DNA of 34,652 nucleotides, taken from a virus (Duplodnaviria; Heunggongvirae; Uroviricota; Caudoviricetes). The DNA is taken from the IMG/VR virus record IMGVR_UViG_2541047785_000009; one strand, given 5' to 3'. Below, piece after piece: positions 1 through 34,652 of this stretch. The notes under the pieces were generated by a model. It had not been told where the DNA came from. It saw only the letters and a list, made by a program, of their open reading frames with translations, and did no database searches. The first letter of the stretch is position 1, and each line of letters opens with the position of its first letter. The position numbers and the translations under genes were made by a program.

Positions 1-1362
1 ATGTTTAAACCGGAACTCCTTTCCCCGGCGGGAACGCTGAAAAATATGCGTTACGCTTTCGCTTATGGCGCAGATGCTGTTTATGCGGGCCAGCCGCGTT
101 ATTCCCTGCGTGTGCGCAACAACGAATTCAACCACGAAAATCTTCAGCTCGGCATCAATGAAGCCCACGCGCTGGGGAAAAAGTTTTATGTCGTGGTCAA
201 CATTGCACCGCACAACGCCAAGCTGAAAACCTTTATCCGTGACCTGAAACCGGTGGTGGAAATGGGGCCGGATGCGCTGATTATGTCCGATCCAGGGCTG
301 ATTATGCTGGTGCGTGAGCACTTCCCTGAAATGCCGATCCACCTTTCGGTGCAGGCTAACGCCGTGAACTGGGCGACGGTGAAATTCTGGCAGCAAATGG
401 GCCTGACCCGCGTGATCCTCTCTCGCGAGCTGTCGCTGGAAGAGATTGAAGAGATCCGCAATCAGGTGCCGGATATGGAGATCGAGATCTTCGTTCACGG
501 CGCGCTGTGCATGGCCTACTCCGGTCGCTGCCTGCTCTCTGGCTATATCAACAAGCGCGACCCGAACCAGGGCACCTGCACCAACGCCTGCCGCTGGGAG
601 TACAACGTCCAGGAAGGGAAAGAAGATGATGTTGGCAACATCGTACACAAGTACGAGCCGATTCCGGTGCAAAATGTTGAGCCGACGCTGGGTATCGGCG
701 CACCAACCGACAAAGTGTTTATGATCGAAGAGGCCCAGCGTCCGGGCGAGTATATGACCGCGTTTGAAGATGAGCACGGCACTTACATCATGAACTCGAA
801 AGATCTGCGCGCCATCGCCCATGTAGAACGCCTGACCAAAATGGGCGTGCATTCGCTGAAAATCGAAGGTCGTACCAAATCTTTCTACTATTGTGCACGC
901 ACCGCACAGGTTTACCGCAAAGCTATCGATGACGCCGCTGCGGGAAAACCGTTCGATACCAGCCTGCTGGAAACTCTGGAAGGTCTGGCGCATCGTGGCT
1001 ATACCGAAGGTTTCCTGCGTCGTCATACTCACGACGATTATCAGAACTACGAATACGGTTATTCAGTTTCTGACCGCCAGCAGTTTGTTGGTGAGTTTAC
1101 CGGTGAGCGCAAGGGGGACCTCGCGGCGGTAGCGGTGAAAAATAAATTCTCCGTTGGCGACAGCCTTGAGCTGATGACGCCGCAAGGCAACATTAATTTT
1201 ACCCTTGAGCACATGGAAAACGCCAAAGGCGAAGCTATGCCGATAGCACCAGGCGATGGTTATACTGTGTGGCTCCCGGTCCCGCAGGATCTTGAGCTCA
1301 ATTACGCGCTGCTGATGCGTAATTTCTCCGGGGAAACCACGCGTAATCCCCACGGTAAGTGA
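1..1362 (+). CDS. yegQ: YegQ/TrhP, peptidase U32-family protein (host gene, complete)
   Basis: 453-aa ORF from the track, ATG at 1 and TGA at 1360-1362; protein recognised as E. coli YegQ; GC-rich host-like composition; forms the left chromosomal flank. Confidence 0.9.
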   Translation: MFKPELLSPAGTLKNMRYAFAYGADAVYAGQPRYSLRVRNNEFNHENLQLGINEAHALGKKFYVVVNIAPHNAKLKTFIRDLKPVVEMGPDALIMSDPGLIMLVREHFPEMPIHLSVQANAVNWATVKFWQQMGLTRVILSRELSLEEIEEIRNQVPDMEIEIFVHGALCMAYSGRCLLSGYINKRDPNQGTCTNACRWEYNVQEGKEDDVGNIVHKYEPIPVQNVEPTLGIGAPTDKVFMIEEAQRPGEYMTAFEDEHGTYIMNSKDLRAIAHVERLTKMGVHSLKIEGRTKSFYYCARTAQVYRKAIDDAAAGKPFDTSLLETLEGLAHRGYTEGFLRRHTHDDYQNYEYGYSVSDRQQFVGEFTGERKGDLAAVAVKNKFSVGDSLELMTPQGNINFTLEHMENAKGEAMPIAPGDGYTVWLPVPQDLELNYALLMRNFSGETTRNPHGK

Positions 1363-1506
1363 TTAATTTCGATTATTTTTCCCGGATGGAAAATTCTTAG
1401 AAACCGATCACATACAGCTGCATTTATTAAGGTTATCATCCGTTTCGCTGAAAAACATAACCCATAAAATGCTAGCTGTACCAGGAACCACCTCCTTAGC
1501 CTGTGT

Positions 1507-1534
1507 AATCTCCCTTACACGGGCTTATTTTTTA
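1507..1534. repeat. attL core: AATCTCCCTTACACGGGCTTATTTTTTA, direct repeat of 34150..34177
   Basis: 28-nt perfect identity with 34150..34177; the first 27 nt are the reverse complement of the P2 att core as I recall it (AAAAAATAAGCCCGTGTAAGGGAGATT). Confidence 0.85.
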
Positions 1535-1596
1535 CGCGTAATACAATGAAATAAAAGGATTTATTTCTGGTCACGTCCACACATTGACCACATCGA

Positions 1597-1621
1597 CAAA
1601 AAAGCCCCTCGACTGAGGGGC
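1597..1621 (-). terminator. Rho-independent terminator downstream of ogr
   Basis: Stem GCCCCTC / GAGGGGC with 4-nt loop; on the minus strand the stem is followed by a T6 run (plus-strand A run 1598-1603); lies just 3' of the ogr stop. Confidence 0.55.
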
Positions 1622-1634
1622 TTCCTGTTTGTAA

Positions 1635-1853
1635 TTACATCCACATAATTTGCTGCCCTGACGGCAACGGGTGCGGTCTTACGGCGTGGACTTCTCCCGG
1701 CTTCACGATGTATCGCTGTACCGACTCATAAGTGATGAACGTGGCGCTGCAATTCACGTTCTGACACTGGTGATAACGCTCTTTTGTCGTGTCAGTGATA
1801 TAGCGGCTTGTACGCGCATGTGCGGCATGCTGGCATAAAGGACAATGAAACAT
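1635..1853 (-). CDS. ogr: Ogr, zinc-finger late-gene transcription activator (72 aa)
   Basis: Track ORF 1635..1985 contains MFHCPLCQHAAHARTSRYITDTTKERYHQCQNVNCSATF...QQIMWM; ATG on minus strand at 1853..1851; Cys4 zinc-finger motif; the 44-aa upstream extension in the track is a longest-ORF artefact. Confidence 0.9.
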   Translation of the reverse strand: MFHCPLCQHAAHARTSRYITDTTKERYHQCQNVNCSATFITYESVQRYIVKPGEVHAVRPHPLPSGQQIMWM

Positions 1854-1935: not shown

Positions 1936-3099
1936 TCACTCATCATCTTCTGTTTCGTACTCCACATCAGAAAGCCTGACCTCAAGCTCTAAGGACGTCG
2001 TGAAGCCGCTATTATTCAGAAAATGTGTCACCTTAGTGATTGTCCAGTCCTGCTCGTCTATGACGCGCTTAAAGCCTGACACTTTAACCGGTGTTTCCGT
2101 GTAAATATCAGCCCGACCGGTAGCCAGGCTGATGGAGAACTCCGCAACGCCCCGTTGCAGTTTATCCCACTTCGCCTGAGCGGCGCGCATGGCCTGCGCT
2201 TTCGTGGCATATACCGTAGTCAGGGCAAAAACATTGTCAGCCTCACCTGCCATGTATTCACCTTCGCGCGCTTCCGGTACTTTTGGCGCTTTCTTCTGCG
2301 TGACCGGTTTCGCTTTCGGGTGCTCCAGTGCGCGCAGGTGTTTCTCTTTCTTTTTGCGTTTCAGTTTTACCTTCTGCTTTTGCGGCTTCGGGTCTTTGGT
2401 GTGTAACCACTTTGCCGTTACGCCGGTGTAGGCTCCACGGTCAGCAATCGCAAAATGATGGCGGTCACCGTCGCTGCGGGTGATGGTGACCTGCGGGATT
2501 TTTTTACCGCTGGCCGTCACCCCCTGCCCCGCTTTGAGAAACAGCAGTTTTCCCATTTTTACCGACACCTCACCGCCGTTGCGTTCTGCAAGACGGGTCA
2601 GAAATTTCGCATCAGACTCCTGCGACTGGTCGATGTGCGGGATTTTAATTCCGGCCAGTGACGGAGCGACACTGGCTTCCAGCCTGTTACGGGAGGCTAT
2701 CGCCTCAACAATCGCACCGAGCGTGGTGTCATGCCATGAGCCTTCACGGCGGGAATTGAGCGTCCCGCGAAAATCTGCACTCCGGGCGCGGATGGTGACC
2801 ACATCCGGTGCGCCCCGGTGTTCAACCTCATCAACGGTAAATTTCCCTTTGCATACCAGGGCAAAACCTTTCCAGCCGATATACACCGTCAGGACAGCGC
2901 CACGAATCGGTAGTCCGACCTGCCCGTCGGCATCGTTCAGTTCAATATCAAGCTGGTCAGCCTCAAAGCCCCGGTTATCCGTCAGGGTCATGCTCATCAG
3001 ACGGTCGCTGATATTGCCGGTAATATCCCTGCTGTCGAGCATCAGCATGTAATCCGGCGTCAGCGTACTGCCTGCATCAAATGTCAGTGCATCCAGCAT
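1936..3099 (-). CDS. D: Tail protein D (P2 gpD-like)
   Basis: 387-aa ORF; sequence and position (between ogr and U) match P2 gpD; start overlaps the U stop. Confidence 0.9.
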   Translation of the reverse strand: MLDALTFDAGSTLTPDYMLMLDSRDITGNISDRLMSMTLTDNRGFEADQLDIELNDADGQVGLPIRGAVLTVYIGWKGFALVCKGKFTVDEVEHRGAPDVVTIRARSADFRGTLNSRREGSWHDTTLGAIVEAIASRNRLEASVAPSLAGIKIPHIDQSQESDAKFLTRLAERNGGEVSVKMGKLLFLKAGQGVTASGKKIPQVTITRSDGDRHHFAIADRGAYTGVTAKWLHTKDPKPQKQKVKLKRKKKEKHLRALEHPKAKPVTQKKAPKVPEAREGEYMAGEADNVFALTTVYATKAQAMRAAQAKWDKLQRGVAEFSISLATGRADIYTETPVKVSGFKRVIDEQDWTITKVTHFLNNSGFTTSLELEVRLSDVEYETEDDE

Positions 3100-3578
3100 T
3101 ATCCCGCCCTCGTCATACCTGTGAATCTGGTCGCCATACTGCCGGCCTTACCGATGAGCGACTCCGCCTGTTTACCGATATCGCCATAAAGCGCGGCCAG
3201 TGATTCATCAACGCGGGTGAGCGACAGCGTAAAATCAATTTTCCGGGGTGTGCCGTCTGCAAAGAAAATACTCCCTGTTTCACTCACCTTGCTGATGACA
3301 TACATGCCGTAAATCATGCCGGTGCCATCCAGCAACGGCCACGCCCGGCCTTCCTCTGCCATCAGCCTGAGCGTGGTCATCGTCAGCTTTCCGCCGGTCA
3401 GTTCGGGATAAAGCACACCGGCAAGCGTGATGTTTTCCTCACCCACACCGAGAAACTGAAAGGCATCCCGTTTACCGATACGGGAATTTGACGGCCAGCG
3501 ATAATCTGATTCACGCTGCATGGTCTGGTGTGGCAGCGTCTGGCGCATAAAAACAAACATACCTAACGCGAGCATCAT
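3099..3578 (-). CDS. U: Tail protein U (P2 gpU-like)
   Basis: 159-aa ORF in the P2 gpU position, sequence recognised. Confidence 0.9.
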   Translation of the reverse strand: MMLALGMFVFMRQTLPHQTMQRESDYRWPSNSRIGKRDAFQFLGVGEENITLAGVLYPELTGGKLTMTTLRLMAEEGRAWPLLDGTGMIYGMYVISKVSETGSIFFADGTPRKIDFTLSLTRVDESLAALYGDIGKQAESLIGKAGSMATRFTGMTRAG

Positions 3579-3592
3579 TTTTCGTCACCTCC

Positions 3593-6040
3593 TTAACCGT
3601 CATGCATCATGCTGGCACGGGCGCGCGCACGTTTATCCCGCTCGTATTTTTCGAGCGCATCCTGTAACTGGCGGTCAAGCTGTGTCCCCGGCGCAGTACC
3701 ACCCGTCAGGCTGATGTGATATTCGTTTTTACTCTGGTCTACATAAGAGCGGCCAGCCGGTGCCGTGACCGGCTGATAAGCCTGATAGCCTGCATAAGAG
3801 CTGGTCGCCGGAATATAACCACCGGTGCCATACGTGGCGGCATTAGTCCTTGCGGCGGTCTGGTCAAGTGTGTCTGACTCTTTGTTGATAACACCGAGTT
3901 TTTCCAGTACCCAGTCAATACCACTGCGCAGTTTGTTGAACGCATTAAGCGGCAGCATCAACGCGTCAGCCAGTGCCTGCCCGAACATGACGCCCGTGTC
4001 ACGGCAACGGTTCAGGGTGTCCTGTGTGGCTTTAACCGGGGCAATCAGGTTTTTAAACCACTGCCACGCGGCCTGTAACTTTTCACCCAGCCAGTCAAAC
4101 ACCGGTTTAAGTGGCGTGAACAGTTCCCCCACCGGCGCAAATGCCGCTTTCAGCCCTTCCACCACACCGCCAAAGAATGCGCTGACAGGCTCCCAGTATT
4201 TACGGATAAGCAACGCCCCGGCGACAATGGCGGCCACCACGGCCACAACCGGCCAGCTAATCGCCCCGACGGCCGTCATAACAGCACTGCCAACCGTCGT
4301 GAAGATTGCCCCCATTGCGCCTGCTGCCGCGATGATGGCATTGATGCCAGTGATAACCGGCCAGGCTACAAGACCAATGGCACCGATGATGCCAGTCAGC
4401 ACCAGTGCACCGCCGGCAATGATGCCGATGGTTGACGCCAGTGATTTGTTTTTCTGTATCCAGCCGTCGAGTTTTAACACATACTTTGTGGCCGTCTGCG
4501 TGAGCTTACGCAGTGCGCCTTCCTGCTGGTCAAACAGGTCAGTCCCCACCGCCTCATAAGCGGACTGAAACTCCTTAAAGTCACCGCCGAGATTGTCCTG
4601 CATGATATTTACCAGCTCTGAGGTCTTCCCGTCCGAGGCTTTAAACGCAGCGGTCAGTTTGTCCAGCTTTCCGGTTGAGGCGGCAGTCATCAGCACGGCG
4701 GCGGCTGAGCTGGCCTCCTCCCCGAAAATGGTTTTCATGTATTCAGCCTGCTGGGCAGTACCGAGCCGGTTTTTCTCAAAACTGGCCTGCATTTCTTTCA
4801 GAATGGTAAATACTGGTCGGGTATTCCCTTTACTGTCTGAGGTTTTCACGCCAAGCTCTTTGAGTGCATCCCATGCTTTTCCCGTCGGTGCCTGCAGGCG
4901 GCTTAACACGGCACGGCTTCCCGTCCCCGCCATTGAACCGGTAATTTTTGCATCATGCAGTGCCCCGACCATTGCGGCGGTTTCTTCAATGCTGACACCG
5001 GCATTTTTTGCCACAGGTGCGGCATAGGTCAGCGCATCGCTCATGCCGTCAAAATCGGCGGCGGTTCTGTTCATCGTCATGGAGAGAACATCCCCGATAT
5101 GAGCGACCTTATCGTTTGAAAGCTGAAAGGCGGATTTCATCCCCATCAGCAGGGCGGCGTTTTCTTCCATCGTGCGGCGGTTCGCCAGCGCCATATTCAG
5201 CGTGACCGGCGTTGCCGCCTGAATGGCATCAACATCCCCACCCGCTTTCGCGATGATTATCTGTGCACCGGCCGCATCATCCGCCGAGGCGGCGGTATTG
5301 TCGCCGAGCTGGCGCGCCTGTTTGCGTAGTGCGGTCATTTCGGCGGAGTCTTTTGCCACTCCGAGCACGGCCTGCAATTCTGAGTTTTTCTGCGCAAACT
5401 CATAACCGGGCATCAGCAACTTAACTCCGGCCATCGTTCCCGCCGCCGCAATCCCCACACCGGCAGCGCCCACTGAGGCCATATTTCCGGCCAGTTCCTT
5501 TCCGGCCTGATAACGCTGTTTTACTGCGTTAAGTTTTGCCTGTTGCGCACTGACACGCGCCAGCGCGTCACGCTGACGGTTAAGCTGTGCGGTGGTTTCA
5601 CTGATACGGTTTTTCAGTCCCTGCTCATCATGTGCAAGATTGCGGGTATTAATTCCCACAACGGCCAGTTCCCGCTGCTGGCGTTTAACGGAATCCGTCA
5701 GGCGGTTATATTTCGCCTGTAAGTCCTCCGCCGCACGCTTTGCGGATTCCAGCACTTTCGCCTGAGCACGTGTCGGACGTTCGGTGTTTTTAAACTGTGT
5801 GGCAAGGGCTTCGGCCTCCTGCCGTGCCTTTTCAAGTGCATGACCAGTCACGGCGAGCTGTGCACTGGTCTTGCGGAATCCCTCAATACGGGATGCGTGA
5901 CCGTTCAGCTCGCGCAGTGATTTTTGTGTTTCCCGGATATCCCCCGACAGCGACCTGCTCGCTGTACGGATGGATTTAAACGGGCGGGATGCCTGGTCAA
6001 CAGCCCTGAGCAATACCTGTAATTTTACATTGTTACTCAT
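3593..6040 (-). CDS. T: Tail tape measure protein T
   Basis: 815-aa ORF, same length as P2 gpT; Ala/Gly-rich with hydrophobic segments; immediately downstream of E/E'. Confidence 0.9.
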   Translation of the reverse strand: MSNNVKLQVLLRAVDQASRPFKSIRTASRSLSGDIRETQKSLRELNGHASRIEGFRKTSAQLAVTGHALEKARQEAEALATQFKNTERPTRAQAKVLESAKRAAEDLQAKYNRLTDSVKRQQRELAVVGINTRNLAHDEQGLKNRISETTAQLNRQRDALARVSAQQAKLNAVKQRYQAGKELAGNMASVGAAGVGIAAAGTMAGVKLLMPGYEFAQKNSELQAVLGVAKDSAEMTALRKQARQLGDNTAASADDAAGAQIIIAKAGGDVDAIQAATPVTLNMALANRRTMEENAALLMGMKSAFQLSNDKVAHIGDVLSMTMNRTAADFDGMSDALTYAAPVAKNAGVSIEETAAMVGALHDAKITGSMAGTGSRAVLSRLQAPTGKAWDALKELGVKTSDSKGNTRPVFTILKEMQASFEKNRLGTAQQAEYMKTIFGEEASSAAAVLMTAASTGKLDKLTAAFKASDGKTSELVNIMQDNLGGDFKEFQSAYEAVGTDLFDQQEGALRKLTQTATKYVLKLDGWIQKNKSLASTIGIIAGGALVLTGIIGAIGLVAWPVITGINAIIAAAGAMGAIFTTVGSAVMTAVGAISWPVVAVVAAIVAGALLIRKYWEPVSAFFGGVVEGLKAAFAPVGELFTPLKPVFDWLGEKLQAAWQWFKNLIAPVKATQDTLNRCRDTGVMFGQALADALMLPLNAFNKLRSGIDWVLEKLGVINKESDTLDQTAARTNAATYGTGGYIPATSSYAGYQAYQPVTAPAGRSYVDQSKNEYHISLTGGTAPGTQLDRQLQDALEKYERDKRARARASMMHDG

Positions 6041-8560: not shown

Positions 8561-9781
8561 ATGATTGATTTCATAACTACTAATACAGGGATTGTATTGA
8601 AATATGTTCCAGAAACAGCAGGTACATCTTGGGTTTGGAATGAATTAAAAACTCATTCAACTGTAACAATTTCTAAAGTTTTTTATTTTAATATTAGCGA
8701 TCTGCTCAATCCTCCGTCACCAAATCAAGATTTTGATAGTTATTTTTATGAGTTTCAGTTTGGAACTTTTAGTGGTGATTATATTGTTATACCAAGTTAT
8801 ATTTTAAATATTCAAAATGATTTATATATAAGTAAAGATATCAATCTTAGTAGGAGCGTCTTTGCTGCAGAGCGTAATATTTCTATTTTTGGTCGACTCT
8901 CGCGAATATTGAATCACAGCAATCCAATTTATATTGGCGGGGATTCTGCGGAGGCAATACCTTCTAATGTTTTTAGTGAGTTATTAAGCAAATTTCCTAA
9001 CTCGTACGAAGTAGATAAATATGCCGATGCTAGAGTACATACGATTCTTGAGCAATATTTGGAAGGCATGAAAGATGCCAGAGGCCTCTACGAAACATAT
9101 CTCAATAAAATAGAACCAATTAGAAAAAGTAATCTCGACTTAACAACTATCAAAGAATTAGAAATAGAAAAATACACTTTAATTAGAGATACCATTGAGA
9201 ATGCTTTAAGTACGAAACAGCACTGGTCCGAAAAAGATTGGCAAAAATTGATGGTGCAATTCCTTCTTCTTTTATTTCCAAAGTATATTCATATTATTGA
9301 AAACATTACCATCCATGATTACTACAGCATCCCAGGCGAGAAAAAAGATCGATACATAGATATAGGCTTGGTTGATTCTAATGGTAATTTAGATATTATC
9401 GAAGTTAAAAAGCCATTTGACGACAAGATCTTGCGCAGGACAAAGTATAGAGGAAATAGCATACCAACGTCTGAGCTAAGCGGTGGTATCATGCAAGCTG
9501 AAAAATATCTCTTCCATTTATCAAAATGGGGAACAAAAGGTGAAGACAACCTTACAAAAAAATATGCAAGTGAACTACCCTCTGGTATGAGCATTCATAT
9601 TTCTAACCCCAAGGCTATCATCATAGTTGGACGTGACCAAATTGGTAATGGAAATATGACAGAAAATCAAAAACTTGATTTCGAAATTATCAAGCGGAAG
9701 TATACCAATATGATGGACATCATTACCTACGATGACCTATTGAGACGGCTTAACCGTACAATTTCAGCACTTAAAAAGTAA
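8561..9781 (+). CDS. Cargo gene in Z/fun slot: 406-aa putative PD-(D/E)xK-family nuclease (restriction-endonuclease-like C-terminal domain); candidate anti-phage defence protein
   Basis: AT-rich ORF on the opposite strand to the flanking tail genes; RBS GGAGAGAG 5 nt before the ATG; C-terminal motif RYIDIGLVDSNGNLDIIEVKKP (D267, D272, E281-x-K283) followed by QAEKY (Q312, Y316), matching the hhhD...hhhExK plus QxxxY pattern of PD-(D/E)xK nucleases such as NucS/Hjc and Shedu DUF4263; N-terminal 250 aa has no recognisable motif. Confidence 0.8.
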   Translation: MIDFITTNTGIVLKYVPETAGTSWVWNELKTHSTVTISKVFYFNISDLLNPPSPNQDFDSYFYEFQFGTFSGDYIVIPSYILNIQNDLYISKDINLSRSVFAAERNISIFGRLSRILNHSNPIYIGGDSAEAIPSNVFSELLSKFPNSYEVDKYADARVHTILEQYLEGMKDARGLYETYLNKIEPIRKSNLDLTTIKELEIEKYTLIRDTIENALSTKQHWSEKDWQKLMVQFLLLLFPKYIHIIENITIHDYYSIPGEKKDRYIDIGLVDSNGNLDIIEVKKPFDDKILRRTKYRGNSIPTSELSGGIMQAEKYLFHLSKWGTKGEDNLTKKYASELPSGMSIHISNPKAIIIVGRDQIGNGNMTENQKLDFEIIKRKYTNMMDIITYDDLLRRLNRTISALKK

Positions 9782-10451: not shown

Positions 10452-12698
10452 TTATACCTGCGCCACGTTATACCATGTCCCGTTAATGTATTTCTGCACC
10501 GGTCTGTAAAATACACCACCAATGTTATCGGCAGAGTTTGAGCCGGTATCCTGAACAATAATACCGGTATATACGCAACCTGACGGAGCCTGATGCGTCC
10601 ATGTAGTACCATTATTTGCTGGTTTATATGTAGATGCACCGCCCAGCCGCATGTCTCTCACATAACGTGAATCTGACTCAGCTTTGGTGTATGCACCAAC
10701 ATCTCCCGCTGAGGGTTTTCGTGTTGTGGTATAGAAATCAGACCAGCCAGATTCAAAACCATAACCATCACGGGCTGACCTGTAAGATATACCGCCATTT
10801 TTATAATTCACACGAAACTGTACAGCCGGGCAGCTACCAGCATTTATATTAAAGTGAAGAATTAATGCAGATGCTCCCCCAATCAGAGCGTTGTATGCGC
10901 CACTGTCCCAATTCCATCCAACGGCTGTATCACCATTAACCGTATTACCTGTCTGCCGAAGTGCAAATGCACCGACATTTCTGGCATTAAGGGTAATATC
11001 TCCAGAACCATCAAAGGCAACACCTGCTATTTTCCTCGGTGTTTCGAGTTTTGAGGCTGTTGCAGCATTTCCTGAAAGGTTGGAAATAAATGGATGTGAG
11101 CAGTAATAACCGCGCCCATTTTTAAAATCCAGAATAGCCTGTGCGTTCGTGCTTTCTGTAGCGGGATTAGTTGCCCCCCACTTATATGTCGTTTGACCGA
11201 CGACATAATCCTCTGTCGGAACAATAACCGTTAGCCCTTCCTCTGCAAGAATTTGCACAGGGAAAGCTCTGGCTTCAACATAAAAAACACTACATACATC
11301 ATCATCTTTCAGGCTTGTAACAATGGAATGGATTGAACGCTCATTGGTCTGATACGTCCAGAAATAACCTGCCGCATATGAACCACGATCAGTCCATCCT
11401 CCGGGCATAACCATGCCATTAAACTCGCAGTTATTCATTACATAATCGCCGTTATAACAACCAGTGGAAATAACGACGCGGGATGCCATTTCTCCTGAAA
11501 GGCTGGCAGCACGGCGAAAGATAACGGGATACCACTTCCCGGCAACGACATTTGCAGGGGCTGCAAACGAATACTTTCGCATTCCCTTTTTCTTATCCAC
11601 TTCACCTTTGCTGTAAACATTAATGTTACTCAGGAAGCGTTCTTTATCAGGAATATCCGCACCGTTCTGATCTTTCTGAAGACGTTTTTCAGCATTGTCA
11701 TTGGCAGACTTCACCGCTTTTGGTGTTGCGGCCAGCGTTTCAGAATCACTGTTGGTGGCGCTACTTAGCTGGACAAGACCTTTTCGCGCTGTGGTGGCAT
11801 CCTGTGCAGTGTATTTCCCGTTAGCAAGGTCATACGCTGTCTTAACCGCCTTTGGCGTTGCGGCCAGCGTTTCAGAATCGCTGTTGGTGGCACTACTGAG
11901 CTGAACAAGGCCTTTTCGCGCGGTGGTGGCATCCTGTGCAGTGTATTTCCCGTTAGCAAGGTCATATGCTGCTTTTACCGCTTTTGGCGTTGCGGCGAGC
12001 GTTTCAGACGTGCTGTTAGTCGCACTACTGAGCTGAACAAGGCCTTTTCGCGCGGTGGTGGCGTCCTGTGCAGTATATTTCCCGTTAGCAAGGTCATAGG
12101 CGGTCTTTACCGCTTTCGGCGTTGCAGCCAGTGTTTCAGACGTGCTGTTGGTCGCACTGCTTAACTGAGTAAAACCTTTTGCGGTCAGCGAGGCGTCAGG
12201 GTGACGTCGTGACTGTTCATGCTCTGCAATTTTGTCATCAACGTAATCCTGCGTCGCCATCACCGTTGTGGTGTCAATGGTCAGCTCCACTGAGGCCACA
12301 CTGCTGACGATGATGACCATGCGGCAGGTCTGCGAACGCCCTGAGCCTTCGGCAAGAGCTGGCTTATAACTTTCGGCCATGTTCGCCACGGCAATTAACG
12401 TTCCCGCATCATCGTACAGGCCAAGCTCACGCATCCAGAAACCGCCCACCTCCGGCGGAATAACCAGCTCTGCGATAATATAATTACTGTTTCGTTTGTC
12501 CTGGCTGATTTTGTTCAGCGCATGTCGCCAGACTTCATGGATAAGCCCGGTCTGTCCGGCATCCGGGACAGACAATTTACCACCGCCATCCCCGACGGCC
12601 ATCGTGGTAATGTTGACCTTCCGCCCTCCCGGTGCGGTTGCCGCTGCCAGCTTTGCTGCACCGGCAGTGGTGATAACGGTTCTGAATTTTGTGCTCAT
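10452..12698 (-). CDS. H: Tail fibre protein H (748 aa, with internal 44-aa tandem repeats)
   Basis: N-terminus MSTKFRTVITTAGAAKLAAATAPGG is P2 gpH-like; contains about 3.7 copies of KGLVQLSSATNSTSETLAATPKAVKxAYDLANGKYTAQDATTAR; longer than P2 gpH as I recall it (about 669 aa). Confidence 0.9.
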   Translation of the reverse strand: MSTKFRTVITTAGAAKLAAATAPGGRKVNITTMAVGDGGGKLSVPDAGQTGLIHEVWRHALNKISQDKRNSNYIIAELVIPPEVGGFWMRELGLYDDAGTLIAVANMAESYKPALAEGSGRSQTCRMVIIVSSVASVELTIDTTTVMATQDYVDDKIAEHEQSRRHPDASLTAKGFTQLSSATNSTSETLAATPKAVKTAYDLANGKYTAQDATTARKGLVQLSSATNSTSETLAATPKAVKAAYDLANGKYTAQDATTARKGLVQLSSATNSDSETLAATPKAVKTAYDLANGKYTAQDATTARKGLVQLSSATNSDSETLAATPKAVKSANDNAEKRLQKDQNGADIPDKERFLSNINVYSKGEVDKKKGMRKYSFAAPANVVAGKWYPVIFRRAASLSGEMASRVVISTGCYNGDYVMNNCEFNGMVMPGGWTDRGSYAAGYFWTYQTNERSIHSIVTSLKDDDVCSVFYVEARAFPVQILAEEGLTVIVPTEDYVVGQTTYKWGATNPATESTNAQAILDFKNGRGYYCSHPFISNLSGNAATASKLETPRKIAGVAFDGSGDITLNARNVGAFALRQTGNTVNGDTAVGWNWDSGAYNALIGGASALILHFNINAGSCPAVQFRVNYKNGGISYRSARDGYGFESGWSDFYTTTRKPSAGDVGAYTKAESDSRYVRDMRLGGASTYKPANNGTTWTHQAPSGCVYTGIIVQDTGSNSADNIGGVFYRPVQKYINGTWYNVAQV
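11703..12188. repeat. Tandem 132-bp direct repeats (about 3.7 copies) inside H
   Basis: Near-identical 132-nt units visible in lines 11701-12180; in frame and encoding the 44-aa SSATNS...TPKAVK...YDLANGKYTAQDATTAR repeat. Confidence 0.8.
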
Positions 12699-15207: not shown

Positions 15208-15993
15208 ATGTTCAGTGATAATGTGACTAATGCGTGGTGGTTTATCTCTTTGTATCTATTTTTATTAATAGCATTAACATTTGTTACCTTTGGTAAAAGT
15301 AATCTTATGAGGTTTATTGCACATCATTTCAATCTTGAGTATTCAGACAGAAAGTTAAAAATGCTCGACAAAAAATGGCGCGACATTCAACTATTTAAAA
15401 TAATTAACGGAATCAATGTATCAGGCATCGAAGATGTGAGAATGATACAGCAGGGGCTGATTGATGGAAAACTAAAAACATCGTATTTTTTCCTTACTCG
15501 CATCTGGGGTGACATAACAAAACCACCACACATAATTAAAACAATAATTGTAATTCTGGCCAGTATTTTTTACATTCTCCTCGCATGTTACATACACAAC
15601 GAACAATCCGTTATAGTAAGGGATGCCATAGGCATACCATATAAAAACATGATGTACTATGTTTATAGTGACAAAGTTCTTTTATCCTTCAAAAATAAAG
15701 CAGTTGAATTTAATAAAACTTATAGCCTTGCCGATTGCAAGAGACTGCAAAACGTATTTATAAAAGACACACTTCCTGAAATCGCCTGCAATAAGCTCTT
15801 ACAGCTAAACGAGGAGGACTCCGAATGGTTAAGTCAGGAGATTAAAGATAATAACAGTCACAAAAAAGCATTATTAATACTATCCCTCGTCTATTTCACT
15901 TCAGGTCTGGTTATATTCCTGTCATATACAAAATTCTTTTACGCCAATAAGAAGGTTTTAGAATACAAAGCATCAAATAAAAATCACTCATAA
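15208..15993 (+). CDS. Cargo gene in V-S (orf30) slot: 261-aa predicted integral membrane protein with 3 TM helices, unknown function
   Basis: AT-rich ORF on the opposite strand to the late genes; RBS GAGGAGAG before the ATG at 15208; hydrophobic segments at about aa 9-29, 116-140 and 232-251; no enzymatic motif recognised. Confidence 0.75.
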   Translation: MFSDNVTNAWWFISLYLFLLIALTFVTFGKSNLMRFIAHHFNLEYSDRKLKMLDKKWRDIQLFKIINGINVSGIEDVRMIQQGLIDGKLKTSYFFLTRIWGDITKPPHIIKTIIVILASIFYILLACYIHNEQSVIVRDAIGIPYKNMMYYVYSDKVLLSFKNKAVEFNKTYSLADCKRLQNVFIKDTLPEIACNKLLQLNEEDSEWLSQEIKDNNSHKKALLILSLVYFTSGLVIFLSYTKFFYANKKVLEYKASNKNHS

Positions 15994-25763: not shown

Positions 25764-27983
25764 ATGGAACTTAAATTAAAGAATATAACCAGCTATAAGA
25801 AAGATAGCTTCACGACTCTTAATCTCTCAAAAAAAATTAATATACTTTATGGTCACAACGGTTGTGGAAAATCAACCATATCTAATTATTTCTATAATCC
25901 AAATAACACGGACTACAAAGAATGCGAATGTCCTTTCATAGATACTTTTCGCCTATTGGTTTATAATACTAAGTTTGTTGAGGATAATTTTTATAATGCA
26001 AAAGAGCAAAAAGGAGTATTCACTTTAAGTAAGGAAAATGCTGACATTGAAAAAGAATTGTTGGAAAAAGAAGCTATAAGACAAGACCTACTTACAAAAT
26101 ACAAAGATAAAAAAAACGTTATTGAACGTTTAATTAAAGATAAAAACAATAAAGAAAATGAATATATTGATTTAATATGGAATAAAGCAGAACCTTTTAG
26201 ATCATCTGACTTAAAGAACTTGATGAAAGGTCAGTTAGGAAGCAAGAGATCATTTTATGAGCAAGTTAAAAAAGCCCCTCAAACCACTGACGTTAACATC
26301 GAGTCACTTGCTCAAGAATATAGTATTCTTTTAAAGAACAAAGATAAATTCACTGCATCAATTACACCTTTAGAAAAATATATCATTTCAGAAAAAGATA
26401 AAGAATCTTTATCCACTCCGATTATAGACTCAAGTAATAGCTATTTGTCAGAAACAATTAAACAACTTCAAAACCTTGACTGGGTGAAAAAAGGGAAGGA
26501 ATTATATTTAAATGGCACATGTTGCCCATTCTGCCAAGAAGACACTATTAAAGACAAATTTTTAGAAGCAATTGAATCTATCTTTGATGATAGCTACTCC
26601 AAGAAAGTTGACCAAATACGCATTATCAGATCGTCTTATGAATCCGCTACCATAGATAATTTAAGAAAAATAAAACAAGAGATTTCATCTTGTGAATTAA
26701 TCACCTCAAAAGAAAAAGATATAACATCATCTCATATAGCGTTATTAGAGGAAATAGCAAACAAAAACTTAAAATTGATGTTAGATAAAATCAATAACCC
26801 ATCTATATCTATTATTTTGGAATCCAATAGCGACCTTGAAGCAAAGGTAGTTGATAATATAACAGAGTACAACAATAGAATTAAAGAAATAAATATTAAA
26901 GTCAAACAATTTAAGGATAGTGAAAAGTCTATACGTTACAAAATATGGGGAGCAATAAGAGAATTATGCAACGCTGAGTTTGAAGCTTTCTCAAAATATG
27001 AGAATGACTATAAAATCATTTATGAACAATATCAACTTGAATTAAATACCATAAAAGAACAAGGAGATAACAATAGCAAAAAGATCAAAGAGCTACGCGA
27101 TCAAATATCTAACATTGATGCAACCATAGATTCTATAAATCAACGTCTAAAATTATTAGGAATTTATGGTTTTAGCATAAAAAAACACACTGAGAGCAAT
27201 GATAAATATATTATATCACGTTCTGAAAACACAACAGATAAAGATGTATACAGATCTCTTAGCGAGGGTGAAAAAACTTTAATTACCTTTCTCTACTTTC
27301 TGGAATGCTGTAAAGGTAAGACAGATAAGAATGATACGGATATGCGAGATGTATTTATCGTTATTGATGATCCAATATCCAGCCTCTCTCAAAATTATGT
27401 GTACGATATTGCTTCAATAATTCACCATGAAATAATCAACAATAACAAAGCAGTAAAGAAAACATTAATACTCACACATAACCTTTATTTCTTTCATGAA
27501 CTTATCAAATTAGCTCCTAGAAGCAAAGAAGATAGAACATTCAAGCGTGATTATTATCTTGGACGAGTAACAAAAAATGAATATAGCATAATTACAGAAA
27601 TAGAGAAAAAGAGCATTCAGAATGAATACCAGTCCCTATGGCAAGTATTAAAAGATGCGAAGGATGGAAGGGTAAATAAAGTTATAATACCTAACATCAT
27701 GAGAAATATACTGGAATACTACTTCGCATTTGTTCATAGAACGGATGCATTACAGACAGAGTTAAATAAACTTGCTAGCGATGATAAGAATAATGATTTT
27801 AGAGCATTTTATAGATACATTAATAGAGGTTCCCATTCAGATGCAGTTAATATCACAGACATGGGAGATATATCTCCAGAGAAATATATGGAGCAACTAA
27901 AAACCATTTTTCGTATGACTGGTGATGAAAAACATTATTTGAAAATGATGGACGAAGAGGAAGAGGAAACCGTTACCGCTTAG
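25764..27983 (+). CDS. Cargo gene in old/tin slot: 739-aa ABC/Rad50-like ATPase with coiled-coil CxxC zinc hook and C-terminal putative anticodon-nuclease domain (RloC/PrrC-like architecture)
   Basis: Strongly AT-rich ORF; RBS GAGG 7 nt before the ATG; Walker A G30-HN-G-C-GKST; long Lys/Glu-rich coiled-coil; C254-P-F-C257 hook; ABC signature L499-SEGEK; Walker B V530-FIVIDDP; H-loop T571-H572; C-terminal R647-x3-E651 and H691, resembling the PrrC/RloC Arg-Glu-His triad. Confidence 0.8.
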   Translation: MELKLKNITSYKKDSFTTLNLSKKINILYGHNGCGKSTISNYFYNPNNTDYKECECPFIDTFRLLVYNTKFVEDNFYNAKEQKGVFTLSKENADIEKELLEKEAIRQDLLTKYKDKKNVIERLIKDKNNKENEYIDLIWNKAEPFRSSDLKNLMKGQLGSKRSFYEQVKKAPQTTDVNIESLAQEYSILLKNKDKFTASITPLEKYIISEKDKESLSTPIIDSSNSYLSETIKQLQNLDWVKKGKELYLNGTCCPFCQEDTIKDKFLEAIESIFDDSYSKKVDQIRIIRSSYESATIDNLRKIKQEISSCELITSKEKDITSSHIALLEEIANKNLKLMLDKINNPSISIILESNSDLEAKVVDNITEYNNRIKEINIKVKQFKDSEKSIRYKIWGAIRELCNAEFEAFSKYENDYKIIYEQYQLELNTIKEQGDNNSKKIKELRDQISNIDATIDSINQRLKLLGIYGFSIKKHTESNDKYIISRSENTTDKDVYRSLSEGEKTLITFLYFLECCKGKTDKNDTDMRDVFIVIDDPISSLSQNYVYDIASIIHHEIINNNKAVKKTLILTHNLYFFHELIKLAPRSKEDRTFKRDYYLGRVTKNEYSIITEIEKKSIQNEYQSLWQVLKDAKDGRVNKVIIPNIMRNILEYYFAFVHRTDALQTELNKLASDDKNNDFRAFYRYINRGSHSDAVNITDMGDISPEKYMEQLKTIFRMTGDEKHYLKMMDEEEEETVTA

Positions 27984-33056: not shown

Positions 33057-34070
33057 ATGGCAATCAAAAAACTCGATGATGGTCGATATGAAGTGGACAT
33101 CCGCCCTACTGGACGTAATGGAAAACGCATCCGTAGGAAGTTTGATAAGAAAAGCGAAGCTGTCGCTTTCGAGAAATACACGTTGTACAACCACCACAAT
33201 AAAGAATGGCTATCAAAACCAACAGACAAGCGACGTCTGTCGGAGCTGACACAGATCTGGTGGGATTTAAAGGGTAAACACGAAGAGCATGGGAAATCTA
33301 ATCTTGGAAAAATTGAAATCTTCACAAAAATAACGAATGACCCATGCGCATTTCAAATTACGAAATCGCTTATCAGCCAGTACTGCGCCACCCGAAGAAG
33401 TCAGGGTATTAAACCTTCGAGTATCAATCGTGATTTAACATGTATTAGCGGCATGTTTACAGCCCTGATTGAAGCGGAGTTATTCTTTGGTGAGCACCCT
33501 ATCAGAGGGACAAAAAGGCTTAAGGAGGAAAAACCAGACACAGGCTATCTCACGCAGGAAGAAATTGCCTTACTGCTTGCTGCTCTTGACGGCGACAACA
33601 AAAAGATTGCGATTCTTTGCCTGAGTACTGGAGCGCGTTGGGGAGAAGCAGCTCGTTTGAAAGCAGAAAATATCATCCATAACCGCGTCACGTTTGTTAA
33701 AACGAAAACAAACAAACCACGCACCGTCCCGATCTCAGAGGCTGTTGCCAAAATGATCGCGGATAACAAACGAGGTTTTTTATTCCCTGATGCTGATTAC
33801 CCTCGCTTCAGACGAACAATGAAAGCAATAAAACCGGATTTGCCAATGGGGCAAGCCACACATGCACTAAGGCACAGCTTTGCCACTCATTTCATGATTA
33901 ATGGAGGAAGTATTATCACGCTACAACGGATACTAGGTCACACGCGGATTGAGCAAACTATGGTTTACGCTCATTTTGCGCCAGAGTACCTTCAGGACGC
34001 CATTTCTCTTAATCCGCTAAGAGGTGGTACTGAGGCCGAGAGTGTCCACATAGTGTCCACAGTAGAGTAA
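33057..34070 (+). CDS. int: Tyrosine integrase Int
   Basis: 337-aa ORF; RBS GGAGGG 8 nt before the ATG; C-terminal HxxR...Y motif (HALRHSF...TMVYAHF); adjacent to attR. Confidence 0.93.
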   Translation: MAIKKLDDGRYEVDIRPTGRNGKRIRRKFDKKSEAVAFEKYTLYNHHNKEWLSKPTDKRRLSELTQIWWDLKGKHEEHGKSNLGKIEIFTKITNDPCAFQITKSLISQYCATRRSQGIKPSSINRDLTCISGMFTALIEAELFFGEHPIRGTKRLKEEKPDTGYLTQEEIALLLAALDGDNKKIAILCLSTGARWGEAARLKAENIIHNRVTFVKTKTNKPRTVPISEAVAKMIADNKRGFLFPDADYPRFRRTMKAIKPDLPMGQATHALRHSFATHFMINGGSIITLQRILGHTRIEQTMVYAHFAPEYLQDAISLNPLRGGTEAESVHIVSTVE

Positions 34071-34149
34071 CGTTTAAGGGCTTTCAGTGGTAATTTATGC
34101 CGCTCAAACCCGCATTGTACCGTTGAAAGCCCCTACTGGTGACACCCTA

Positions 34150-34177
34150 AATCTCCCTTACACGGGCTTATTTTTTA
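34150..34177. repeat. attR core: direct repeat of 1507..1534
   Basis: 28-nt perfect identity with the left copy; flanking bases differ on both sides. Confidence 0.85.
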
Positions 34178-34334
34178 TGCATAAGCCCTATCCCTGGTCA
34201 CCGTCTTCCATTGACCACATCGATAGAATCTCCCTTCATAGCACGATGCCTTTCACGTAACGGCATCGTGCTCGCACAGGTTCCGGCTAAGCACAACCAG
34301 AACGCGCATGTTTGACGCTTACCAAAAAATATTC

Positions 34335-34652
34335 TCACTCTCCACATTTGAATGTCAGACGAGCGACGCCATGTAATCCTGCACCTTCTGTCTTCAGGTC
34401 AACTATCTGCATTTTTTTGCCCTGAGTAACACAGAAATGGGCTGCATCATTTTTTACTATATTTTCTGCACCAGATATTCTGCCCCTGGCTAAAGAAGCT
34501 TCGGCTTCGGTGTAGTATTGGTTATCGAGTTTACGCTGAATATTACTTTTATATGCAAGACCAAATTTACCGATACTTGTCTCATCATTATGCACAGCAC
34601 AACCAGACATAATAAAAATACTAATTAATGATATAGCAGCTATCTTTTTCAT
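34335..34652 (-). CDS. yegR: YegR, small lipoprotein (host gene, complete)
   Basis: 105-aa ORF MKKIAAISLISIFIMSGCAVHNDE... with lipobox; recognised as E. coli YegR; ATG is the last three bases of the window. Confidence 0.85.
   Translation of the reverse strand: MKKIAAISLISIFIMSGCAVHNDETSIGKFGLAYKSNIQRKLDNQYYTEAEASLARGRISGAENIVKNDAAHFCVTQGKKMQIVDLKTEGAGLHGVARLTFKCGE

Follow-up and report, generated by a model that had tools for sequence, protein, structure and literature searches.

The bacterial DNA that abuts the right end of a P2-type prophage in E. coli is most probably of phage origin itself. We analysed a stretch of 34,652 nucleotides (called the window throughout) in which yegQ (1-1362), cyaR, the P2-type prophage, a short flank and yegR follow one another from left to right. 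We conclude with good confidence that the flank, at positions 34178-34237, is the decayed ogr-side P arm of an ancient P2-like element, which sat in the cyaR terminator in an ancestor of E. coli, was later mostly deleted, and left a residue that is now fixed in the species. A preliminary description of the window had noticed arm-like sequence on the bacterial side and attributed it to an earlier P2-like element at this locus. The earlier element is borne out, in that the flank most likely descends from a P2-type attP arm, but the history of the individual strain that was read from it is not, because the flank is also found in prophage-free E. coli. The features on which the argument draws are listed here by position in the window.

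1-1362: yegQ, at the left end of the window.
1445..1530, plus strand: gene of the CyaR (RyeE) sRNA (Rfam RF00112, 100.7 bits against a gathering score of 47), with the terminator hairpin seen in the fold.
1507..1534, plus strand: left att core, AATCTCCCTTACACGGGCTTATTTTTTA, at the cyaR/prophage junction; the same 28-mer stands at 34150-34177, and it matches the attP core of P2 (NC_001895).
About 1532-1565: IHF footprint region of the P arm, its position transferred from the P2 annotation.
1535..1600, plus strand: P arm of the prophage (ogr side), from the P2 annotation transferred by alignment.
1567-1596: Int arm block of the P arm, its position transferred from the P2 annotation.
1574-1581 and 1585-1592, minus strand: predicted Int arm-type sites of the P arm (consensus scan, 7/8 each).
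1601-1624, minus strand: ogr terminator hairpin (P2 annotation).
1635-1853, minus strand: ogr (P2 annotation).
33057-34070, plus strand: integrase gene int (ORF list, P2 annotation).
33057..34149, plus strand: int together with the P' arm (ORF list, P2 annotation, consensus scan).
34043-34050 and 34054-34061: predicted Int arm-type sites of the P' arm (consensus scan, 8/8 both).
34150..34177, plus strand: right att core, at the junction of prophage and host flank.
34178..34226, plus strand: probable decayed P-arm relic, which forms the host (B') flank (alignments, shuffle test, consensus scan).
34227..34236, plus strand: 10-mer that repeats the first 10 nt of the core (exact match).
34240..34272, no strand assigned: hairpin with a perfect 11-bp stem and an 11-nt loop (folds).
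34335..34652, minus strand: yegR, a 105-aa lipoprotein gene (PF27694), within the E. coli insertion between cyaR and yegS.

The region 1601..1853 is 97-99.5% identical to P2 and to Peduovirus P24C9. A tandem repeat of 3 copies, with a 132-nt period and 82-88% identity, lies at 11691-12180 inside a minus-strand ORF (10452-12698) that is probably the tail-fibre gene, judged by its position. The plus-strand ORFs 8561-9781 (406 aa), 15208-15993 (261 aa) and 25764-27983 (739 aa) run on the strand opposite to their neighbours and could be cargo genes of the prophage.

The 8-mer, 15-mer, 10-mer and hairpin that the preliminary description had listed were all found at the positions it gave. The 8-mer CTGGTCAC occurs at 1567-1574 and again at 34194-34201, and the 15-mer CATTGACCACATCGA at 1582-1596 and 34209-34223, with no further match to the 15-mer in the window at up to 2 mismatches (0.10 expected). 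In both copies the two words are 7 nt apart, so that they make up a single 30-bp block, and this block lies inside a gapless 49-nt repeat (1562-1610 against 34189-34237) of 71% identity. The different distance of these elements from the core, which had also been pointed out, can thus be refined to one displacement of one block. It is separated from the core by 32 nt on the phage arm and by 16 nt on the host flank, which is the sole spacing difference (the 15-mer starts 47 nt past the 28-nt core in the prophage arm and 31 nt past it in the flank). With one 16-nt gap, the whole of the flank from 34178 to 34237 aligned with the phage arm from 1535 to 1610, and when this alignment was anchored at the core it scored 17, against 2.96 +/- 1.57 for shuffled sequences, none of which reached 17 in 5000 trials. 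The first bases of the flank, TGCATAA, pair with CGCGTAA of the phage, and the core together with these 7 nt forms a 35-nt repeat around the prophage, with 33 matches.

Which arm the flank resembles can be read from the P2 record. In NC_001895 the arm on the ogr side is annotated as P and carries, outward from the core, the IHF site, a 28-bp Int site and the ogr terminator, and the arm on the int side is annotated as P', with the Cox sites and an Int site. The sequence had been labelled P'-arm-like, and by this annotation it should be called P-arm-like. The flank shares with the P arm of P2 attP the order and orientation relative to the core, the recognisable 30-bp Int block with its exact 15-mer, and similar first 7 nt past the core. 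It differs in that 16 nt of the IHF footprint are missing, one of the arm-type repeats is destroyed, neither the ogr terminator nor ogr comes next, and it sits in chromosomes that are free of the prophage. The 16-nt gap falls inside the IHF footprint annotated in P2, and the 30-bp block falls on the annotated Int site of the P arm.

We scanned the flank with the arm-type Int consensus tgTGGaCa, taken from PMC3448106. One predicted site is kept, TGTGGTCA on the minus strand at 34212-34219 (7/8), 34 nt from the core, whereas the position of the second site reads CGTCTTCC and the site is lost. A search of the flank for Int arm-type and IHF sites had been proposed; it holds one predicted Int site, and its IHF region carries the 16-nt gap. 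A functional P arm has two direct arm-type repeats 11 nt apart, which are present in the prophage arm (7/8 each) and not in the flank; the flank also lacks the IHF region and the fixed distance between arm block and core.

We rebuilt the empty site by joining window positions 1100-1534 to 34178-34652. Of the 5426 complete E. coli genomes that we searched for it, 4565 covered 80% or more of its length in one place, and many contained it as one unbroken 910-bp piece at 100% identity, flanked by annotated yegQ and yegR genes. The flank alone was found in 5385 of the 5426 genomes, nearly always from its first base. Its carriers include ST131, O157:H7, E. coli B, K-12 and others (seven strains were compared) and come from all sampled phylogroups. 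Since the rebuilt site is unbroken in thousands of genomes, the scar belongs to the normal attB, and the flank is the normal right side of the unoccupied P2 site attB (locI). The statement that phage-arm sequence is not expected at a naive attB is contradicted by this result, as the flank is standard at empty locI. The preliminary description had also named an outcome that would count against it, in which the flank occurs in empty-site strains and has no similarity to P2 beyond the core. The first half of this outcome is what we observed, and the second half is not, since the similarity to P2 is present.

We compared the yegQ loci of 80 Enterobacteriaceae species with the E. coli empty site. 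Similarity to the outgroups begins at the yegQ stop codon, extends across cyaR and breaks off at query positions 171-174, where the core ends. In Escherichia sp. E1V33 (yegQ 93% identical), as in most genera, the core runs directly into the region upstream of yegS, whereas about 0.8 kb lie between the two in E. coli. E1V33 is the one non-coli Escherichia with this simple cyaR-yegS junction, from a sample outside which E. fergusonii and E. marmotae fell. These results demonstrate that the flank is absent from the sampled outgroups and that E. coli carries a lineage-specific insertion, which starts exactly at the att core.

An integrated element is expected to leave a second core where it meets the ancestral flank, and a degenerate copy was found there. 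In the empty-site locus L085 it lies at 2711-2737 and reads AATCCTCCATACTTGAACTGACTTTTT, with 18 of 27 matches to the core in the same orientation; the copy is outside the window, about 300 nt beyond its end, at would-be positions 34953-34979. The bases after it, ATCCTC-CGACTTTCATCC, are in register with those that directly follow the core in E1V33, GCCTCACGACTTTCATCC, apart from a 1-nt indel. A core match of at least 18/27 anywhere in the 890 nt was obtained in 46 of 2000 shuffles (2.3%). The 45 nt to the left of the far-end core could be aligned in register with the core-proximal P' arm, with a score of 6 against -8.4 +/- 3.4, a value reached in 1 of 2000 shuffles. Like the degenerate core, this putative P'-arm relic is short, and the significance of either one is no more than moderate. 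The far-end core and both arm relics show about 67-75% identity to the phage sequences, and such similar values fit a single age. The order core, P-arm relic, interior, P'-arm relic and degenerate core is the signature of an integrated element, and we infer that a single ancient element explains both ends.

The att core itself belongs to the host. It consists of the CyaR terminator loop together with the 3' stem and U-tract, and the first 27 nt of the 28-mer are the core that the P2 record (NC_001895) gives for attP. Across the yegQ loci of the 80 Enterobacteriaceae species the core is conserved, so that the proposal that the prophage integrated into a residual phage core has to be dropped in favour of a conserved CyaR 3' end (Rfam, 100.7 bits). 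The left core is still perfect because, as the CyaR terminator, it is under selection, and the far-end core is degenerate because it was free to decay. In the present prophage the 28-mer is identical at both junctions and the whole relic is on the right-hand side of the core, indicating that this phage used the full canonical core. As in other cases of integration into the 3' ends of sRNA and tRNA genes, the core regenerates the end of the CyaR gene at the left junction, and the same core holds P2-like prophages in several genera. What is specific here is that the E. coli DNA downstream of the sRNA is, most probably, old phage debris.

Two observations concern the end of the core. In L004 (CP169086.1, labelled Enterobacter hormaechei B17-3), identity to E. 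coli is about 99% throughout the baeR-yegP-yegQ-cyaR region (2165-4533) and holds to the final base of the core. From 4534 on the DNA is Enterobacter-like, with a yegS about 70% identical to that of E. coli; this switch looks like a recombination breakpoint located exactly at the P2 core. At 34164-34188, the core end and the flank start together hold an inverted repeat, GGGCTTAT/ATAAGCCC (8 bp, 9-nt loop). We rejected it as a real structure because its folding is unconvincing (z = -1.9), and it may be due to chance.

The sequence of events that we propose is as follows. Long ago, a P2-like element would have integrated into the 3' terminator of cyaR in the ancestor of E. coli. A later deletion would have removed nearly all of the element and left about 0.8 kb between cyaR and yegS, in the order intact core, P-arm relic, hairpin, yegR, AT-rich DNA, a weak trace of the core-proximal P' arm, and the degenerate core. 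This arrangement is now fixed in the species as the 'empty' locI. The prophage of the window would have entered the full core by the ordinary Int-mediated route, and since it used the full core, its right junction has the old relic as immediate neighbour.

The 'naive' attB of P2 (locI) would accordingly be half phage-derived, with the CyaR terminator on its left and a decayed P arm on its right. The scar is a fresh example of a well-known kind, the prophage relic at an att site. Our literature text searches, which left out the original att-site papers of about 1989-1993, returned no mention of arm homology in the locI flank. Because nearly all E. coli have the flank, it is uninformative on the recent history of a strain, and phage-arm sequence outside attR is no guide to that history here. 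The relic also affects the calling of prophage boundaries, as several database 'phage' records extend into the flank and yegR, and it is relevant to the reading of P2 recombination substrates, in vitro or in vivo, that include the flank, as well as to the origin of the orphan gene yegR.

The flank is not identical in all genomes. A long allele (EFF60, locus L094 1005-1115; about 149 genomes) reads GTGCATAAACCATAGAGACGGATTGATCCC / GTGCATAAACCATAGAGACGGATTGATCCCAGGTGACC and has 9 nt more than the common form. These 9 nt include GGATTGAT, which matches GGATTTAT of the phage, and they align with the IHF region of the P arm. Another, intermediate allele, ATGCATAAGCTGTAAATACGGATTGATCCC, is present in IMG/VR. 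The rarer alleles carry arm-like bases in part of the gap, from which it follows that the relic was once longer and that the common short allele has lost more of it.

At some right junctions in IMG/VR and at some empty sites, ACGCGTAA, the bases of the phage, stands in place of ATGCATAA right after the core, and the normal host flank follows. A 103-nt query for the ACGCGTAA empty site matched exactly in at least 25 of the genomes listed (H195-H219) and in 2 of 60 evenly spaced rows, which corresponds to roughly 2-5% of genomes. That two changes occur together, both to exactly what the phage has, suggests a recombination or conversion event on the right of the core and within the 35-nt identity. 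This allele may be the footprint of prophage loss or of gene conversion to the right of the core, and it could be an old polymorphism.

We then considered whether the relic still has a role. On the evidence of its sequence it is most likely non-functional, since most of the IHF region is missing and a single arm-type site out of two is left. That the fossil is not inert is unlikely: in that case the arm-type site and the 35-nt B' identity would bias integration or excision at locI, the preferred P2 attachment site of E. coli, or Int-independent loss of the prophage would leave ACGCGTAA behind, and yegR would be domesticated phage cargo. A narrower idea, that the flank is a functional extension of attB, with the arm-type site and the 35-nt identity kept for the integration and excision of P2-like phages or refreshed by gene conversion from prophages, is quite improbable. 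The 7/8 predicted arm-type site that survives 34 nt from the core, the 33 matches of the 35-nt repeat around the prophage, and the empty sites with ACGCGTAA, as would be expected after recombination on the right of the core, speak for it. They are countered by the loss of the IHF region and of the second arm site, by a level of conservation in the seven strains no higher than that of neighbouring intergenic DNA, and by the possibility that the ACGCGTAA allele is an old polymorphism. Short core-containing attB fragments suffice for P2 recombination.

We also asked in which direction the shared sequence had moved, as similarity by itself gives no direction. An ancestral P2 that had acquired host DNA beside attB, for example by imprecise excision, would carry an arm copied from the flank. 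This is very improbable. In 580 kb of yegQ loci from the 80 Enterobacteriaceae species, the 15-mer (at most 1 mismatch) occurs 4 times, all of them 48 nt after the 27-nt core and within the arms of P2-like prophages. Citrobacter, Scandinavium and further Enterobacteriaceae have such an arm next to the core, Trabulsiella has a variant of it, and many IMG/VR contigs show the same arrangement. The arm block thus keeps a fixed 48-nt offset in prophages of genera that have no E. coli flank. It is likewise present in WPhi and L-413C, which match the arm from window position 1546 onward, i.e. only beyond the core, these two phages sharing a core of their own (PMC3448106). Furthermore, the block carries two Int arm-type repeats that are also present in the P' arm, the host copy is the degraded one, with a gapped IHF site and one site lost, and compared with the outgroups the host flank is inserted DNA. 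Judged by this distribution, the arm block is a phage feature, and the E. coli flank is lineage-specific.

The reading closest to that of the preliminary description is that of a recent, strain-specific scar, in which an earlier P2-type prophage was lost imperfectly and the present phage entered the leftover core, in the manner of ogrK and yegZ in K-12. Arm-like sequence is indeed present on the bacterial side, and K-12 is an example of a partial P2 remnant at this very site. This reading is barely tenable nonetheless, and the empty-site genomes rule it out: an identical flank is present in prophage-free strains, some form of it in 5385 of 5426 genomes from all sampled phylogroups, and the core is the conserved CyaR terminator. 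K-12, moreover, has its own remnant plus the same scar.

The K-12 locus shows how the two differ. Its order is yegQ, cyaR, core, a perfect P arm, ogrK, a gene D fragment, the right-hand 17 nt of the core, and then the old flank. An ogr gene and a gene D fragment between a core and a partial core are absent from 34178-34334, and in K-12 they lie to the left of the flank. The cryptic P2 remnant of K-12 (ogrK plus truncated gene D, 'yegZ') shares its locus and orientation with the scar, and in both cases a P2-type prophage would have been cut down by a deletion on its int side. The remnant consists of about 630 bp of nearly intact P2 sequence and is lineage-specific, whereas the scar has about 70% identity and is species-wide. 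The flank had been described as in line with this remnant; K-12 carries both, with the old scar on the right and the remnant on the left, and the remnant goes back to a different and younger event.

A further relic was seen in Escherichia albertii NBRC 107761 (L006, 4534-4900), where a recognisable P arm, its IHF-region homologue intact, comes after the core. Unlike the E. coli relic, it is cut inside the first arm-type site, and the DNA that follows looks like a fragment of an IS-type transposase. The E. albertii relic is independent of the E. coli relic and represents a separate event.

Chance resemblance or a generic host repeat, to which the shortness of the elements (8, 15 and 10 nt) might point, has next to no probability, as the arm block is protected from it by the 5000 shuffles, by the arm-like bases of the longer flank alleles, and by the 15-mer being confined to P-arm positions in the 580 kb of related loci and to two places in the window, a distribution that also answers the suspicion that the 15-mer is a generic host repeat; for the 10-mer alone chance is possible.

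The 10-mer AATCTCCCTT is found at 1507, 34150 and 34227 (0.03 expected), and by a rough estimate the chance of any 10-mer of the core in a 100-nt flank is about 0.004. The exact match at 34227..34236 had been taken for a partial second copy of the core. The match itself holds, but similarity to the core goes no further: 5 of the next 17 positions match, and an anchored alignment past the 10-mer against the core was no better than shuffles, 2569 of 5000 of which scored as well. We also considered two nested fossils, with a decayed second core and the start of an arm at 34227, and rejected this because extension of the 10-mer gave no signal. Many phage arms read ATCGATA...AAGCCC at the position of the 10-mer, which is the start of the ogr terminator stem, so that the 10-mer may be a coincidence. 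It may therefore derive from a partial core or from chance at the position of the ogr terminator stem, and it is no evidence for a usable second core. An exact 10-mer does not fit well with a uniformly decayed single fossil. Among the seven strains compared, a variant, AATCCTCCTT, was present only in K-12 and B, the two phylogroup A strains.

Folding confirmed the perfect 11-bp-stem hairpin at 34240..34272. Its stems, 34240-34250 and 34262-34272, form 11 perfect pairs, with z values of -3.3 on one strand and -3.65 on the other, and it lies 63 nt downstream of the yegR stop codon. The stem is kept in the seven E. coli strains apart from one uncompensated change in ST131, and variation is mostly in the loop. 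We rejected an intrinsic terminator, because there is no U-tract or T-run on either strand and no terminator-like site was called.

Finally, we examined the interior of the insertion. No phage genes or other phage-like DNA were recognisable inside the 0.8 kb. When the remainder of the flank and the AT-rich DNA upstream of yegR were compared by blastn with 50,697 phage records, the only matches were to the core and to records that contain host flank, and a tblastn search of the phages with YegR returned two records only, both of which include host flank. ON470606.1 (vB_EcoM-720R8) and AY639599.1 ('Phage TP') are phage records that run into the host flank and yegR. In a scan of YegR against Pfam-A nothing was above threshold, and precomputed annotations list PF27694 (YegR). 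YegR also matches PHROG 21109, which probably derives from mis-bounded prophage records that include host flank. We rejected YegR as a phage protein because its matches were in phage records containing host flank only.

The yegR gene is close to an orphan gene. Homologues of 76-81% identity occur elsewhere, in other bacteria, where they are followed by a second, 110-aa lipoprotein gene. The closest homologues outside E. coli have non-phage contexts; distant homologues have IS-flanked or ordinary chromosomal neighbourhoods, and none is in a P2-like prophage. An apparent 88% homologue (L103) was discarded, as it is a B2 E. coli assembly with homopolymer errors. Given the non-phage contexts of its homologues, yegR could be a later insertion into the relic; it may instead have arrived as cargo of the old phage. 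In B2 strains (ST131 etc.; L084 2090-2260), 170 bp of extra DNA lie between the hairpin and the yegR stop, near window position 34323. This extra DNA is an N-terminal remnant of the second lipoprotein gene (41% over 37 aa, E = 2e-6), the gene that follows the yegR homologue in L099, at 2822-3154.
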